NCBI GenBank assembly: GCA_048881705.1
Contig: JBHLSH010000061.1
Coordinates: forward strand, 1-23,650
Direction of reading: 5' to 3'
DNA from: Candidatus Heimdallarchaeota archaeon
GTDB taxonomy: Archaea > Asgardarchaeota > Heimdallarchaeia > Hodarchaeales > Hodarchaeaceae
DNA length: 23,650 nucleotides
How positions within the stretch are numbered: position 1 is the stretch's first letter; each line of letters opens with the position of its first letter. This document shows, in pieces, positions 9,847-16,044 of the stretch. The notes below the pieces were generated by a model. The model was not told where the DNA came from. It saw nothing but the letters and a program-made list of their open reading frames with translations, and searched no databases. Position numbers and translations under genes: made by a program.

Positions 9847-12800
9847 CTATTTGCGGTTTTTTCGCAGACTTTCCAGAACGATTTGCTGATGGCTAATATT
9901 GAGTCCAAAGCAAAGAACGGATAGAATGTCAACAGAATCGCCCAGTATATCTGTTCTCTTGTTTAGGATTTGAATTCGAGAGCTAACATTTTGATAACTT
10001 TCATGGACCTTCAGATTCTCCGCCTCTGAAATATAATAGCTCCTTTGGATCGTTTTTCTTATTTCGGGCCATTTTTTAATACCAACGACTTCCATTAATC
10101 TTATAGAAGCTTCTCTCTCTATTAATTTTGTTTCATATGCCGCTTCGGTTTGAAAATGGGTTTGAAGACGTTCGACAAACCCTTGTTGCAACTCTTGAAC
10201 CTTAATCTTCATCTTTATGATGTTTTGAACCGTGATCGCTACTGCATCATGGTAACCATGATCTTCATGAGCTTCCATATATAGATTAATCCCTTTTTGA
10301 ATGCTTTTTACAATTTCATTCTTCAGGCCTGATCTTGGAGGCCCATCGAAAGCCAATATTGCATCAATTGATTTCTTGACGTAATTTCTAAACTGTTGTA
10401 GTTTCGATTTTGGAGTATCGAATTTTATGACAGGAATCGGTATCTTCGATGAATAAGGGAAATCCATGACTCGAGAAGTTTCCGTCGTTTTGCTAAATAG
10501 GACATTTGCGAGATAGAAAGACGGAATAGGGCTATTTATAATTCCACAGAGGAAATGCAAGGAATATAGAGAGTTTTTAGGCAAGATAATATTAACTAGT
10601 TTTTCAGTTGTGCATAAATCTCCATTCGGATCTACATAAGCTACTAGACGGTTTCCACGCAACACTTTGAGGAAAAGACGCCTTTTAAGAATTTTATCAG
10701 CCCGCTTACGTAATCGAAGATGACGATCAGACGAAAGATCTAATAGGTGGTACCTGATAATTTGGTAGGATTTTACATGAGGAACGCGGTCAATCCAGAC
10801 ATATTGCCCGTCAGTTTTCGTTCGGAGGAGTGATTTTAACGAATAGGTGAGATCGGTAATTACGGTCCTTTTAACTTTATTAGGAATATACATACCTCGA
10901 AATATACATCGTTTGGATCCAATGATCTCCCCCAATGGAACAGACGAAAGGGATATCCGTTTAACTACATCCAGTTCATTGGATGACATCCCCCGAAAAA
11001 GCAGGACCTCATTTTTATGATAGAAATCTGAGGGTATTGAATGATCGGCGCGAATTACTTTTCGAAGCGCTAATCTGTTGTTGGGATGTGCTACCGCAAT
11101 TTCAACCTGTTTTTTTGGCTTTTGATATTCGGTCAATCCTCCAATCAGGCCAATTGTTTCAAAATTGACATTAGCAAATGATAAACCTATATCCAGAACA
11201 TTTCGAATTCGAGTTTTACTTAACAATACCGCTCGAACATCCCTCCATTGCGAATAGAAAGCGAAACTTTTCGGAAGGATAAGCCCGAACCGCTTTGAAA
11301 TCGTTAGAATAAAAACCAAGAAATATGCTGCAGAGTCTTTATGAGTTCTATACAAGTTTTTATAATATTTCTTAAGTTTTGGTGGTATATATGCACCATA
11401 TGGAGGATTGGTGATGACTAAGTCAAATCCTTGATCCAGAGCTGATGAATTATCATCCCAGTCCCAAAATTCTGCATCAGTATGAAAATATTGGAGGTTC
11501 TTTGCTTCGTTCATCACTTCCTTAAGCAATGGGGTTGGCGACTCCAATTTACTCCCCTTTAGAAGGGACAATATGCTTTCAATTACTCTTCCCTGAAGTG
11601 ATATATCATTTAGAGCACAGTGAATCCTTGTCCATTGACAAATATCGAACACGAGTTTCATAATTTCCCTATTGCCTTGTCGCAGCATGGAATATACCAG
11701 ATCATCCTTAATCCTGATCCTAGACAGAAATTGCCGAACATCACACCAGCGTACCCCCAAAAGGGGATTTCCAACACAGATCCGATTGTCCAAATATGAG
11801 TAGTCCATTGGATGCGCTGATGACGTTATCCAAAGCGAAAACTTGGTTATGTCCACCGCAATCGGATCAAGATCAATTCCGTAGAGGCAATGTTTTAGAA
11901 TCAACCACTCAAAATGGTCTCTGGAACTCCTCAAATTGTGACTGACGAGAGGTTCAAATCTATATTCTTGACCCATGAGTCCATAAAATGTACTGAATAT
12001 CTGCCTTGCCCATTTCTTAAGAACATTGAACGTTTCGAGTAAAAACAGTCCCGTTCCAACAGCTGGATCAAGGATTTTAAGTTCAAGCAATTTGGCTAGC
12101 GGATCAATTTCACGGAGTTTCTTTATCTTCTCCTCATAGCCATCTTCTGTATTAGACTGAAGAATTTCAATTTCAGACTGAAAATTCTGGTTGATTCGCA
12201 TTAAAATATCATTAAGGGCATTATTAGTCAGGTACTGAACGGCATACCTAGGAGAGTAGTAGGATCCTGAAAATTTTTGATTATCCTTTCTTCCTTCGGC
12301 TGAAGTTAATGTCAGTCCCTTGGAATTATTTGAGATGTTATATTGAAGGGTTAGCTCATAGATTTCACCAAGGAAAGCCGGAGGTAGTGTGCTGTAGTTT
12401 ATCCAGACAGAAACATCATCGGATACTGCGAATCTAGAGAGAGAATCGATCAATCTTGCCATGGAATGATCAGAAATTTGAGCTTGATCTATGAATACGT
12501 CATGTTTAATGTTGAAGATCCAGCTTTTCCATGGGATTCCGTGGCTAGAAGAAGAGGGTAATCTTAATCTTTGACAAAGCTCCTGAAATGATTTGAACAA
12601 ATTATAAATGGAGTCACCAAATGATTTATGATCCTCATATGCATTTTCGATCCTTTTTCTCAAAACAACGTATTGGGGGTATTCAGAATTGATCTGTACT
12701 GAAAAGCGATCCTCGACAATCATTATAATGATGAGGCGCAAAATGAATATAACCGCGATATTGTAGATTTTGTGCAATTTATTCGAAAAGTGATCTTTTC

Positions 12801-12912
12801 CATTTTTATAGAACTCGTCAATCAAAATAGGTAATGATTCCTCAATAATTGTTGTCTTTAGGTGCAAAATGATTTCATTGGTTTTTTGAGGAGAATTTTT
12901 CATTGTTCTCAT
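9847..12912 (-). CDS. Type IIG/Eco57I-like N6-adenine DNA methyltransferase, no recognisable N-terminal nuclease domain
   Basis: Motifs GSYYSP (motif X), ILDPAVGTGLFL (SAM binding), LYGIDLD and DLVITNPPYG (catalytic). A TaqI_C-like specificity region follows (FLCGIINS...IPIP) with a helical tail. Confidence 0.85.
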   Translation of the reverse strand: MRTMKNSPQKTNEIILHLKTTIIEESLPILIDEFYKNGKDHFSNKLHKIYNIAVIFILRLIIIMIVEDRFSVQINSEYPQYVVLRKRIENAYEDHKSFGDSIYNLFKSFQELCQRLRLPSSSSHGIPWKSWIFNIKHDVFIDQAQISDHSMARLIDSLSRFAVSDDVSVWINYSTLPPAFLGEIYELTLQYNISNNSKGLTLTSAEGRKDNQKFSGSYYSPRYAVQYLTNNALNDILMRINQNFQSEIEILQSNTEDGYEEKIKKLREIDPLAKLLELKILDPAVGTGLFLLETFNVLKKWARQIFSTFYGLMGQEYRFEPLVSHNLRSSRDHFEWLILKHCLYGIDLDPIAVDITKFSLWITSSAHPMDYSYLDNRICVGNPLLGVRWCDVRQFLSRIRIKDDLVYSMLRQGNREIMKLVFDICQWTRIHCALNDISLQGRVIESILSLLKGSKLESPTPLLKEVMNEAKNLQYFHTDAEFWDWDDNSSALDQGFDLVITNPPYGAYIPPKLKKYYKNLYRTHKDSAAYFLVFILTISKRFGLILPKSFAFYSQWRDVRAVLLSKTRIRNVLDIGLSFANVNFETIGLIGGLTEYQKPKKQVEIAVAHPNNRLALRKVIRADHSIPSDFYHKNEVLLFRGMSSNELDVVKRISLSSVPLGEIIGSKRCIFRGMYIPNKVKRTVITDLTYSLKSLLRTKTDGQYVWIDRVPHVKSYQIIRYHLLDLSSDRHLRLRKRADKILKRRLFLKVLRGNRLVAYVDPNGDLCTTEKLVNIILPKNSLYSLHFLCGIINSPIPSFYLANVLFSKTTETSRVMDFPYSSKIPIPVIKFDTPKSKLQQFRNYVKKSIDAILAFDGPPRSGLKNEIVKSIQKGINLYMEAHEDHGYHDAVAITVQNIIKMKIKVQELQQGFVERLQTHFQTEAAYETKLIEREASIRLMEVVGIKKWPEIRKTIQRSYYISEAENLKVHESYQNVSSRIQILNKRTDILGDSVDILSVLCFGLNISHQQIVLESLRKNRK

Positions 12913-13440: not shown

Positions 13441-13525
13441 AAACCTTTTAAACAGAATGATTTTTGTCGCGAGCTGTAATCACCCTATCAGAAACTTAAA
13501 AATATACCATAAGGAGAAAAGGTGA
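13441..13525 (+). promoter_or_regulatory. BRE/TATA-like promoter and SD site of the histone gene
   Basis: AAACC-TTTTAAAC at 13441-13453; GGTGA at 13521-13525, 5 nt before ATG 13531. Confidence 0.5.
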
Positions 13526-13530
13526 GAACC

Positions 13531-13962
13531 ATGGCAAATACATTTGCAAAAGCTAGAGTAGAATCGATTGTTAAAGCTGCTGGAGCTGAACGTATTTCAG
13601 CAAAAGCTATCATGCGTTTAGACGACCTTACATCGGAATTCGGTACTAATGTATCCAAAACCGCAATTAATCTCGCACAAACGGCTGGTCGTAAAACCGT
13701 GCAAGCTGAAGATATTAAGTTAGCTGTAAATAAGACGGGCGCACCCAAAAGTTCCCCAACGGACCCGAAATCGCGTGCATTTGCGAAAGCAAGAGTAGAA
13801 CGAGTTATCCGAGAAGCCGGTGCTTCTCGAGTTTCGGGTGATGCCGTAGAGTACCTCAACAAACAGCTCGAGGCTTACTGCTATACATTGGCCAAATCAG
13901 CAATTGAAATTGCACGTCACGCCAAGCGTAAGACGGTTAAAGACACCGACATTATGGTTTAG
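13531..13962 (+). CDS. Archaeal histone doublet (two tandem HMf-type histone folds, 143 aa)
   Basis: Two repeats, FAKARVESIVKAAGAERIS...AGRKTVQAEDI and FAKARVERVIREAGASRVS...HAKRKTVKDTDI, each match HMfB (IIKDAGAERVS...RHAGRKTIKAEDI). They are joined by a ~15-aa linker. ATG 13531 is preferred over GTG 13522 because of the SD site. Confidence 0.95.
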   Translation: MANTFAKARVESIVKAAGAERISAKAIMRLDDLTSEFGTNVSKTAINLAQTAGRKTVQAEDIKLAVNKTGAPKSSPTDPKSRAFAKARVERVIREAGASRVSGDAVEYLNKQLEAYCYTLAKSAIEIARHAKRKTVKDTDIMV

Positions 13963-14002
13963 TTTCATTCTATTGAAACTAAAACGTAGATATTTCAGTA
14001 AT

Positions 14003-14024
14003 TCTTCCCTTTCTTTTCTTTTTT
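14003..14024 (+). terminator. Oligo-T archaeal terminator after the histone gene
   Basis: Pyrimidine tract TCTTCCCTTTCTTTTCTTTTTT starts about 40 nt after the TAG at 13962. Confidence 0.6.
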
Positions 14025-14115: not shown

Positions 14116-16044
14116 GTGAATTCGGCTCAGAAACGGAAATCACTGGGCCAATATAGCACTCCAGATCTTATAACTTCTTATATGGTCACACGAACGCTAG
14201 ATCTATGGTACAAAACGGAAAATAACACCAGATCATTAACAACCGTTCGTATTCTTGATCCTGCGTGCGGAACGGGATCTTTTCTCGCACAGGCCCTGAA
14301 ACATCTGCTTACAATATATCAAAAGGAATTTCCCGAAGAAGAAGATCCTCGTTTTTTAAAAAGAAAGATAATTGCCAATAATCTATATGGTATTGATATT
14401 GATCCATTAGTGATAAACAAAACTCAGATGGAGGTTGCCGAGGGGTACAAAGGAAATGTGAAGCTCTTTGACGCACTCATGCCTCCACCCGGTTTCAGGA
14501 TGAAGGCTTATTCCCCCCCGAAGACCAAACATCTTAGAAATGAATATAGGAATTTGTTTATAACAAAATCAGATGACAAAAGGTTAGAAAAGCTCATTAA
14601 AGAGATTTCACAACTGGAAACGACAACTAGCAACCAGGTTATGGCAGAAATCGCTTCTGTGTTCGGTAAGATTCCTGATATGTCACCTCCCATGCGCTGG
14701 GAGGCCGTGTTTCCTGAAACAAATGGCAAGTTCTCAATCATTTTAGGGAATCCCCCATGGGGTGGAATATTACCCTATCCACGCCAGTTTCTAGAACTGT
14801 ATGAAGTTGGATTGAAGCAAGTTGATACATGGAGCCTTTTTCTGGAGAGAAGTATTCTTGCTTTAGAAGAGGGCGGCATGCTAGGATTTGTGCTCCCTAA
14901 TACCCTGCTGCTCAATGAAAACTATTTTGAAGTCCGTCAGCTTATACTTGAGAAGTGTCTAATCCATGAAATAGTAAATCTCGGAGAAAGGATTTTTCCC
15001 AATGTCACCCAACCTAGTATGATGATCATCCTTCAAAGACACCCTATTAAAACTCTTGAAAGACCAATTGAGACTCAAATTGTAAACCAAATTCCTAATA
15101 ACATGAGGAAAAGACTACAAAATGAGGAGGCATCTCTATTCGACCTCCCATATCTAACCTGTCCCCAGGAATATTTCCACGGGGGAAAATACCTGCATTT
15201 TGATATATTCTCTGTCGGCCATGAGAAGTTCATCAAATCTATGGAAAGCGATTCTCGGTCAAAAAAAATTTCGACAAAACCCTTGGGGGATCTTGTTATC
15301 AATGGGAGAGGGGTCGAAATAAATCACGAAGGAAAAATAGTACTTTGTAAGAGCTGTGGAATGTGGAATTCTCCAATAACTAGCCGCTCGGGCCCAGGAA
15401 TCAAAAAGTGCGCTCACTGCAATGACAATATTACCGAAAAAAATCCAAAGGATCATATAGTTTATGATACGCCACAAGAGAACACAGCACCTTTTCTTAC
15501 TGGACGGGATATTCATAGGTACCTAATACGTCCTCCCAAATACATTGACCTTACGAGACCTGGAATTCAATACAAACAACCTGGATTATTTGAGGGAGAG
15601 AAACTCCTTCTGCGAAAAACGGGAAATAAAATCAATCTGGCGTTGGATACTCGAAATCATTGGGTAAATCAGGTTGTCTACATTTTCAAACTCCGAGAAG
15701 GGGCGCCAATATCATTAGAATTTCTTTTGGGGGTACTTAATTCGAAATTGATGCAGAAGTACTACAATTATAAGTATGGAGATCCCTATCGCAGGGAGTT
15801 TCCTCATTTTACTCAAGGAAAATTCTTGCAACTTCCCATTAAACTTCCTCATTCGACTGAAGAGTATACCATGGCCCGTAGAATAGGAAAACTAGCCAAA
15901 TCGTTGCAGGAACTGTCGCAGAGCGTCGAATCTAACAATTTTCAATCCCAATTATCGATAGAAGTTCGGTCACTTTTCAGCTCGCGTGATGCGGATCTTG
16001 AAGAATTAGTACTTTCCTATTATAATATGGAAAATGAATCTTAA
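14116..16044 (+). CDS. TaqI/Eco57I-like N6-adenine DNA methyltransferase with zinc-ribbon insertion
   Basis: Motifs GQYSTP, ILDPACGTGSFL, LYGIDID and IILGNPPWG, plus LGFVLP and a TaqI_C-like tail (KLLLRKT...FLLGVLNS...QLPI). A CKSC-x17-CAHC insertion lies at 15346-15420. GTG start; an in-frame TAG sits at 14071. Confidence 0.85.
   Translation: MNSAQKRKSLGQYSTPDLITSYMVTRTLDLWYKTENNTRSLTTVRILDPACGTGSFLAQALKHLLTIYQKEFPEEEDPRFLKRKIIANNLYGIDIDPLVINKTQMEVAEGYKGNVKLFDALMPPPGFRMKAYSPPKTKHLRNEYRNLFITKSDDKRLEKLIKEISQLETTTSNQVMAEIASVFGKIPDMSPPMRWEAVFPETNGKFSIILGNPPWGGILPYPRQFLELYEVGLKQVDTWSLFLERSILALEEGGMLGFVLPNTLLLNENYFEVRQLILEKCLIHEIVNLGERIFPNVTQPSMMIILQRHPIKTLERPIETQIVNQIPNNMRKRLQNEEASLFDLPYLTCPQEYFHGGKYLHFDIFSVGHEKFIKSMESDSRSKKISTKPLGDLVINGRGVEINHEGKIVLCKSCGMWNSPITSRSGPGIKKCAHCNDNITEKNPKDHIVYDTPQENTAPFLTGRDIHRYLIRPPKYIDLTRPGIQYKQPGLFEGEKLLLRKTGNKINLALDTRNHWVNQVVYIFKLREGAPISLEFLLGVLNSKLMQKYYNYKYGDPYRREFPHFTQGKFLQLPIKLPHSTEEYTMARRIGKLAKSLQELSQSVESNNFQSQLSIEVRSLFSSRDADLEELVLSYYNMENES

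Follow-up and report, generated by a model that had tools for sequence, protein, structure and literature searches.

By ‘the window’ is meant here the whole stretch of DNA that was analysed, i.e., 23,650 nucleotides of contig JBHLSH010000061.1 of a Candidatus Heimdallarchaeota archaeon (Hodarchaeales; Hodarchaeaceae). At 13531..13962 on the + strand (stop codon included) is found an open reading frame, the translation of which is a protein of 143 aa consisting of two histone folds in tandem, that is, a histone ‘doublet’. Both folds are recognized by Pfam as PF00808, the archaeal histone/CBF-NFY fold, at residues 5-66 (E 1.9e-12; 47.7 bits) and residues 84-141 (E 5e-14; 52.7 bits), with each score exceeding the curated cut-off of 21.4. 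Fold 1 (13543..13734, + strand; residues 5-68) is a full-length histone fold with a four-helix-bundle face that is variable and lacks histidine. A 15-residue linker rich in proline, lysine, serine, and threonine follows (TGAPKSSPTDPKSRA; 13735..13779, + strand; residues 69-83), and then fold 2 (13780..13959, + strand; residues 84-143), which combines an invariant histidine face with a helix 3 that is cut to three residues. The doublet is a real and conserved gene for a basic protein, with a pI of 9.9 in the window and of 9.5-10.0 across all orthologues, which fuses two histone folds and is predicted to bind DNA. An earlier note had read this gene as a histone doublet in an Asgard genome, a reading that is borne out by the two PF00808 folds and by the Hodarchaeales orthologues described below. 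Its description of the linker as rich in K, S, P, and T holds as well, with six positions (G70, P72, K73, P76, T77, and K80) invariant among 34 orthologues; that the linker might be a site of modification is speculation.

Upstream of the gene, at 13516..13525 (+ strand) and 5 nt before the ATG, is a Shine-Dalgarno-like motif, GAAAAGGTGA, which recurs 5-10 nt 5' of the start codon at almost all of 19 orthologous loci. As the alternative GTG at 13522 falls inside of this conserved motif, the start is the ATG at 13531. At 14002..14024 (+ strand), 3' of the stop codon, is a pyrimidine/oligo-T tract, likely an archaeal terminator. Archaeal transcription is terminated by oligo-T tracts, and a T-rich run of at least 12 nt is seen 11-70 nt past the stop codon at 18 of the 19 loci. 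Given both a conserved ribosome-binding motif and such a tract, the doublet looks like a transcription unit of its own. The idea that doublet and downstream methyltransferase might be a single operon is disfavoured by the conserved oligo-T tract intervening between them.

Orthologous loci display a conserved order of genes: P-type ATPase, doublet, Eco57I/TaqI_C-type N6-adenine methyltransferase, (ABC_cobalt), and RuBisCO-like protein. Within the window, this N6-adenine DNA methyltransferase (14116-16044, + strand; 642 aa) carries Eco57I, N6_Mtase, and TaqI_C domains and is too short at its N-terminus to accommodate a nuclease domain as well. It is 75% identical to its counterpart in genome G061, where the doublet is 100% identical, and it holds its position while diverging fast, like a restriction-modification or defence gene. 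Another methyltransferase, of the Eco57I/MmeI type (9847-12912, - strand; 1021 aa), possesses about 260 residues ahead of its methylase domain and is found between P-type ATPase and doublet only in the window genome and in G061. It looks like an insertion, as at other loci the ATPase directly precedes the doublet.

A word-indexed search recovered 34 full-length orthologues of the doublet, 140-148 aa in length and 72-87% identical, those that are named being Hodarchaeales or Hodarchaeota. From an exhaustive search of representatives came a single additional full-length relative that is more distant, P0044 (50% identical). In a survey of 83 genomes from the window's class, the doublet is present once per genome in 16 of the 21 other genomes of the window's genus and is absent from all 61 genomes of other families. 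The five genomes of the genus in which it was not found are 70-86% complete, and it is present in single copy in every one that is at least 87% complete; the doublet is, that is, a core gene of this genus. The six histones of the cultivated Hodarchaeales strain HC1 do not include a doublet, and HMpC of that strain, which was considered as a candidate, is instead a 72-aa singlet. The window's genome encodes four singlet histones in addition to one 364-aa protein with an N-terminal histone fold, and the genomes of relatives carry 4-9 singlet histone genes. That 364-aa protein (L007:1480-2571, on contig C30 of the same genome) begins with a PF00808 domain (E 4e-7), continues with a long extension, and ends with a Lys/Arg-rich C-terminal tail; histone-Roadblock/LC7 fusions have been mentioned for Hodarchaeales (Hocher and Warnecke 2024, PMC10919886).

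An AlphaFold2 model of the doublet, built with the 34-orthologue alignment, is of a pseudodimer (pLDDT 89.5; pTM 0.84), i.e., helix-loop-helix-loop-helix twice over with the two folds paired within one chain. Model and Pfam domains are thereby in agreement as to this being a histone doublet in the sense of two folds that pair intramolecularly. Helix 2 is 28 residues long in both folds, helix 3 of fold 2 consists of residues 138-140 only, and the linker is the least confident part (block pLDDT 66). Neither fold possesses a complete four-helix-bundle face, that is, both His49 in HMfB numbering and a helix 3 of about 10 residues. The best Foldseek match to the model is 1F1E, which is HMk of Methanopyrus kandleri (TM 0.78; rmsd 2.6 Å over 137 columns). 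Next in rank are single-chain H2B-H2A chimeras and Melbournevirus doublets. The whole chain aligns with HMk by sequence as well (E 4e-10).

The closest solved relative of both folds, taken individually, nevertheless is HHoB (PDB 9QV5, 9QV6, 9QV7; E about 1e-16, ~45% identity). This is a tail-less Hodarchaeal singlet of 68 aa, the homodimer of which has two identical faces and polymerises into open as well as closed hypernucleosomes. Fold 1 aligns with it one to one and without gaps (PDB 9qv5; E 2.5e-16), and fold 2, of which HHoB is the best PDB match (E 6e-16), is offset from HHoB numbering by 79. Doublet and HHoB share the residues that contact DNA, along with an R54-D61 clamp: R9, K/R15, R21, R54, K55, and T56 (HHoB numbering) do not vary in either fold across the 34 orthologues, and neither does D61 of the RKTxxxxD loop 2 motif. 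It is from these contacts, along with the basic pI, that we infer binding to DNA. The small loop 1 residues, G18 and G97, likewise are invariant. Of the two folds, only fold 2 has chains of eukaryotic histone H4 among its PDB matches (E 7e-6 to 1e-4; ~59 residues), a comparison of fold 1 with the PDB having returned no H4 chain at E 0.001 or better. Residues 129-136 of fold 2 (window 13915-13938) read RHAKRKTV, of which HAKRKTV is the loop 2 sequence of H4 as well. This likeness is probably convergent, as the motif is present also in unrelated archaeal singlets.

In HMfB numbering, fold 1 displays S10, G16, R19, L46, T49, R52-K53-T54, D59, and L62, with fold 2 displaying R10, G16, R19, I46, H49, R52-K53-T54, and D59. 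The chain of fold 2 then ends at position 62, which is valine in the window protein and proline in 33 of the 34 orthologues. Upon translation and alignment, every one of the residue calls on which the earlier note had based its description of an asymmetric doublet, with the tetramerisation histidine found in fold 2 only, turned out to be correct. Over their whole lengths the two folds are 43% identical as proteins. Both also open with FAKARVE, and 13541-13563 and 13778-13800 are identical at 21 of 23 nt. This match might be viewed as indicating a recent duplication or gene conversion, but that reading was rejected: the FAKARVE peptide is conserved, and of its seven codons five are identical between folds where 2.6 would be expected from window codon usage (P = 0.059). 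Over all residues common to the folds, 12 codons are identical versus 8.1 expected. The 21 of 23 nt encode FAKARVE, which does not vary in either fold, and the match therefore does not count as separate evidence that a duplication took place.

A tree of fold domains, resting on 68 columns, recovers fold 1 and fold 2 each as monophyletic (support 94 and 95, respectively), with both inside of a clade of HHoB-like Hodarchaeal singlets (support 91). The folds thus are placed with local singlets and not in common descent with the Methanopyrus or haloarchaeal doublets, to which identity is 22-34%. The free tree does not have folds 1 and 2 as sisters; constraining them to be so improves the likelihood, and the constrained tree survives the AU test (p 0.70). 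The intragenic duplication that had been suggested for this gene therefore is compatible with the tree, but the DNA identity that had been cited in its favour is not evidence for it. The simplest history would be that a local HHoB-like singlet was duplicated in tandem or fused when the genus arose, with the two halves diverging thereafter. The more distant relative, P0044, is a protein of 150 aa found on one 3-kb metagenome contig (SRR14699982). Both of its folds have the His, its C-terminal helix 3 is of full length, and its linker has a G..SP.PK pattern in common with that of the doublet; it may represent either the symmetric state that existed prior to divergence or instead an independent fusion. 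A search for further symmetric doublets such as P0044 found none.

Other histone genes of these archaea offer several observations in their own right. Lys-rich, N-terminally tailed singlets of the same genus, i.e., L034 (G050 C9:529816-529995) and L043 (G049 C36:2589-2765), have Asn in place of the tetramerisation His (…EITNNSGRKT), and so do the tailed HMpB.1 and HMpB.2 of strain HC1, loss of this His being recurrent among Hodarchaeal paralogues. As helix 1 of the tailed paralogues (ARVERIIRDAGAFRVSADAV) resembles helix 1 of fold 2, the doublet's linker might descend from a short tail. In genome G064, just downstream of the doublet, there is a decayed HHoB-like singlet gene (L015:2050-2230), which reads LIREAGAKRVSTD, a stop plus frame change, NRLNEVLTDYGTNISHYAVEITSLYG, a stop, and then KTIKESDIKLAATK. 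It occupies the methyltransferase's usual place, with the contig ending soon after.

The HHoB dimer-dimer interface, as listed in a cryo-EM study, supplies a reference against which the faces of the two folds can be compared over the 34 orthologues. In the open state, that interface consists of Y44, E47, I48, H51, R54, D61, and K68, with the closed state adding L64 and Q67 (Ranawat et al., bioRxiv 10.1101/2025.05.24.653377). At HHoB position 51, fold 1 has A (15), T (12), S (6), or N (1) and never H, whereas fold 2 has H in 34 of 34; the loss of His from fold 1 that had been noted for the window protein is, that is, consistent throughout the family (0 of 34 retaining it). Fold 1 similarly has T, S, A, N, G, or E at position 44, eight different residues at 47, and F, L, or A at 48, versus S in 33 of 34, E or D, and I (30) or M, respectively, in fold 2. 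R54 and D61 are fixed in both. At position 64, fold 1 has L, F, V, or I, with S, G, or N at 67 and K68 in 31 of 34, while fold 2 has a terminal P at position 64 (33 of 34) and lacks 67 and 68 altogether, the chain ending three residues past the helix 3 Asp in 34 of 34. In the doublet's own numbering, S123, I127, H130, R133, D140, and terminal P/V143 of fold 2 are invariant or nearly so. Relative to HHoB, fold 1 thus has lost Y44, E47, and H51 and fold 2 has lost Y44, L64, Q67, and K68.

Constraint on the two faces is correspondingly unequal. Across the C-terminal half of helix 2, column entropy over the 34 orthologues averages 1.10 bits in fold 1 as opposed to 0.26 in fold 2, and the corresponding means for helix 3 are 0.81 and 0.17. 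The two folds have similar values in helix 1, in loops 1 and 2, and in the N-terminal half of helix 2; at HHoB positions 44, 47, 48, 51, and 64, column entropies in fold 1 are 1.5-2.4 bits. The same is seen with non-synonymous differences per site, which at the face are 0.234 (fold 1) versus 0.054 (fold 2) and outside of the face are 0.115 versus 0.101. These are non-synonymous proportions only rather than dN/dS ratios, as synonymous sites are saturated (pS 0.68-0.87). The doublet as a whole is under purifying selection, differing from the G061 copy by 19 synonymous and 0 non-synonymous changes. As a control, 20 HHoB-like singlets were taken from five genomes of the same genus, representing several paralogue groups. 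All 20 of these have Y44, I48, R54, D61, and L64, and 18 of them have H51. It therefore is fold 1 that has lost a constraint which polymerising relatives retain, with fold 2 keeping constraint, though on a surface that has been remodelled (Tyr44 to Ser, along with a shortened helix 3). The 34 orthologues are close kin from one genus, and the variation sampled by these measures therefore is shallow. The constraint on fold 2 shows, furthermore, that this surface matters and not what binds there.

Doublets as such are not new to this group. Histone doublets with high pI have been reported from Hodarchaeales, were found to be absent from Lokiarchaeia, and have had their function stated as unknown (Hocher and Warnecke 2024, PMC10919886). 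In its tandem folds, Hodarchaeales origin, and high pI, the protein studied here belongs to that same family. Asgard doublets also figure, next to the Methanopyrus type, in a review from 2026, and the notion that fusion may relax one half of a histone pair, giving rise to an asymmetric dimer, is an old one (Henneman et al. 2018, citing earlier work). Hocher and Warnecke (2024) provide no description of the interfaces; the present analysis adds the asymmetry at individual positions, the differing constraint on the two folds, the shortened helix 3, the confinement to a single genus, and the synteny. In comparison with the literature searched, the residue-by-residue comparison with HHoB, the finding that constraint is relaxed specifically at one face, and the unique C-terminal truncation appear to be new.

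HMk has the same architecture as the doublet, i.e., two folds joined by a linker into an intramolecular pseudodimer, but it is only 28-29% identical, has a pI of 4.9 rather than 9.9, possesses no His in either fold, and retains a full-length C-terminal helix 3. As both of the doublet's folds nest among Hodarchaeal singlets, the doublet is a fusion independent of HMk. Nine other doublets, mostly acidic and with an N-terminal EFS motif, were recovered as well, and presumably resemble the haloarchaeal type. Of these, none has the His in its N-terminal fold while eight have it in the C-terminal fold; asymmetry of this polarity therefore is a recurrent property of doublets. The truncation is not: three residues follow Asp140 in the present doublet versus 6-15 after the equivalent position in every other doublet compared.

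Two further kinds of archaeal histone each share one aspect of the doublet. A non-His residue at position 49 marks the so-called ‘capstone’ variants of Methanobacteriales, with unstable dimer-dimer interfaces and a predicted stop to oligomer extension (Stevens et al. 2020, PMC7776873). Capstones, however, are singlets, so that a homodimer loses both faces, whereas the doublet loses one face of a pseudodimer that is covalently fixed, which would make for a directional cap. The capstone marker at 49 also is an acidic or bulky hydrophobic residue, unlike the A, T, S, or N of fold 1. The α3-truncated, or face-to-face, histones (Schwab et al. 2024, PMC11390915) have a helix 3 of about three residues as seen in fold 2. 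As defined, however, these histones combine a helix 3 of 3-4 residues with a helix 2 that is shortened by 4-5 residues (PMC11390915), whereas helix 2 of fold 2 is full length, at 28 residues, and its sequence is of a nucleosomal type near to HHoB. The truncation of fold 2 is convergent with that of α3-truncated histones and affects one fold only.

The following role can be proposed. The two folds, paired within one chain, would constitute a basic, tail-less histone pseudodimer, together binding about 30 bp of DNA as does a dimer of HMf or HHoB. Only the four-helix-bundle face of the C-terminal fold would be kept as a specific protein-protein surface, made up of the last part of helix 2, where His130 lies, together with the Arg133-Asp140 clamp and a helix 3 that is very short and terminates in Pro, with the equivalent face of the N-terminal fold having presumably drifted. 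With only one ‘live’ face, the doublet would join one other histone unit but could not pass the chain on. That unit could be a second doublet, resulting in a closed dimer spanning about 60 bp, or it could be the end of a hypernucleosome of abundant HHoB-like singlets, on which the doublet would dock and thereby halt growth. There is precedent for components of this scheme: fixed particles of four folds are reported to form when archaeal doublets, HMk among them, dimerise (PMC9145170), and histones with a truncated helix 3 still pair, using this short helix together with the end of helix 2 (PMC11390915). We infer such one-sided pairing, by which doublets would bound rather than extend histone chains, from comparison of sequences, and regard it as about equally apt to be right or wrong. 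Selection on the two faces is very unequal, as the one-sided pairing envisaged in the earlier note predicts, but the fold 2 face which that note had relied upon is not canonical. With Tyr44 replaced by Ser, Leu64 by a terminal Pro, and Gln67 and Lys68 missing, the pairing of fold 2 may be weak, or its partner may be another one. Fold 1, for its part, could still pair loosely, as its hydrophobic residues at 48 and 64 are kept along with R54 and D61.

From a different perspective, then, the doublet might still polymerise, forming open-ended hypernucleosomes either head to tail, with fold 2 against fold 1 of the next unit and one His-Asp pair per junction, or interspersed with dimers of singlets, and so be an architectural variant that merely tunes stability. 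Fold 1 indeed keeps R54, D61, K68, and a hydrophobic residue at both 48 (F/L/A) and 64 (L/F/V/I), the small loop 1 residues that allow close stacking of gyres (G18 and G97) are invariant, and all DNA contacts are kept in both folds. Tailed singlet paralogues, both of the same genus and of HC1, also are without the His, those of HC1 being abundant chromatin proteins. A junction surface should be conserved, however, yet positions 44, 47, 48, 50, and 51 of fold 1 are among the protein's most variable, and these are positions that are fixed in polymerising singlets. Fold 2, moreover, lacks the distal half of helix 3 which supplies L64 and Q67 (closed state) as well as K68 (open state). We consider polymerisation to be unlikely, though far from negligible.

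Deviation of both faces from the HHoB interface could be read instead as indicating that neither of them pairs histones at all. The doublet alone would then be a 30-bp DNA-bending pseudodimer with a low-abundance regulatory or site-marking role, as with haloarchaeal doublets, and its fold 2 surface would bind a non-histone partner. The histones of Haloferax volcanii, at less than 0.1% of total protein, are consistent with transcriptional regulators rather than with packaging (preprint 10.64898/2026.07.02.735847), and the doublet is found as one copy per genome versus 4-9 singlet genes. The doublet is strongly basic (pI 9.9), however, and close in sequence to a proven hypernucleosome former, HHoB, whereas the Methanopyrus and haloarchaeal-like doublets recovered have a pI of 4.9-7.9, with one at 9.0. 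What fold 2 conserves (E/D47, I48, H51, R54, and D61) is exactly a histone-histone interface set, and the strong, conserved ribosome-binding motif of the gene hints at good expression. A solitary role accordingly strikes us as decidedly unlikely. Very improbable is a further reading, that of doublet plus downstream N6-adenine DNA methyltransferase as a chromatin-plus-methylation module. An Eco57I/N6_Mtase/TaqI_C methyltransferase does lie on the same strand, 60-160 bp downstream, in all 18 loci with enough sequence (15 genomes of the genus, the window's own included, plus 3 other contigs). But P-type ATPase, doublet, methyltransferase, and RuBisCO-like gene all keep their order, so that the adjacency may be merely inherited with the neighbourhood as a whole, and at 18 of 19 loci an oligo-T, terminator-like tract separates the two genes. 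The methyltransferase, furthermore, shows only 34-43% identity between genomes, compared with 75-86% for the doublet and 69-77% for the ATPase, which is fast-changing, restriction-modification-type behaviour rather than that of a co-adapted partner.

One-sided pairing, if it occurs, can be taken a step further. The polymers that histones normally form in archaea have no fixed end, unlike the bounded nucleosomes of eukaryotes, and a covalent dimer with one live and one dead face would be the simplest device for turning an endless polymer into a bounded particle. Such a step is said to lie on the road to H3-H4 according to the doublet hypothesis of Malik and Henikoff. A pseudodimer with a single competent face could set the size of histone-DNA particles in this one genus of Hodarchaeales, whether as a closed, tetrasome-like (doublet)2 unit or as a directional cap, and thereby be an independent archaeal re-invention of the bounded-nucleosome logic of H3-H4, with P0044 as the state before asymmetry. 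That fuller reading we hold tentatively, and think on the whole somewhat doubtful. Its weight is limited as well because the family already has been published, is found in one genus, arose late from local singlets, and has a polarity that recurs in other archaeal doublets. The bearing on nucleosome origins that had been suggested for this gene consequently stands by analogy but not by descent: with both folds nested among local singlets and the doublet present in one genus only, this is a late fusion and an analogue of H3-H4 rather than its forerunner. The doublet, that is, illustrates a principle and does not represent an ancestor. As a basic, conserved, HHoB-like doublet in Hodarchaeales, it nonetheless is an experimentally tractable model, standing beside the solved structure of HHoB, and if the above reading is true then the logic of the bounded particle would have been re-invented in the lineage that is closest to eukaryotes.
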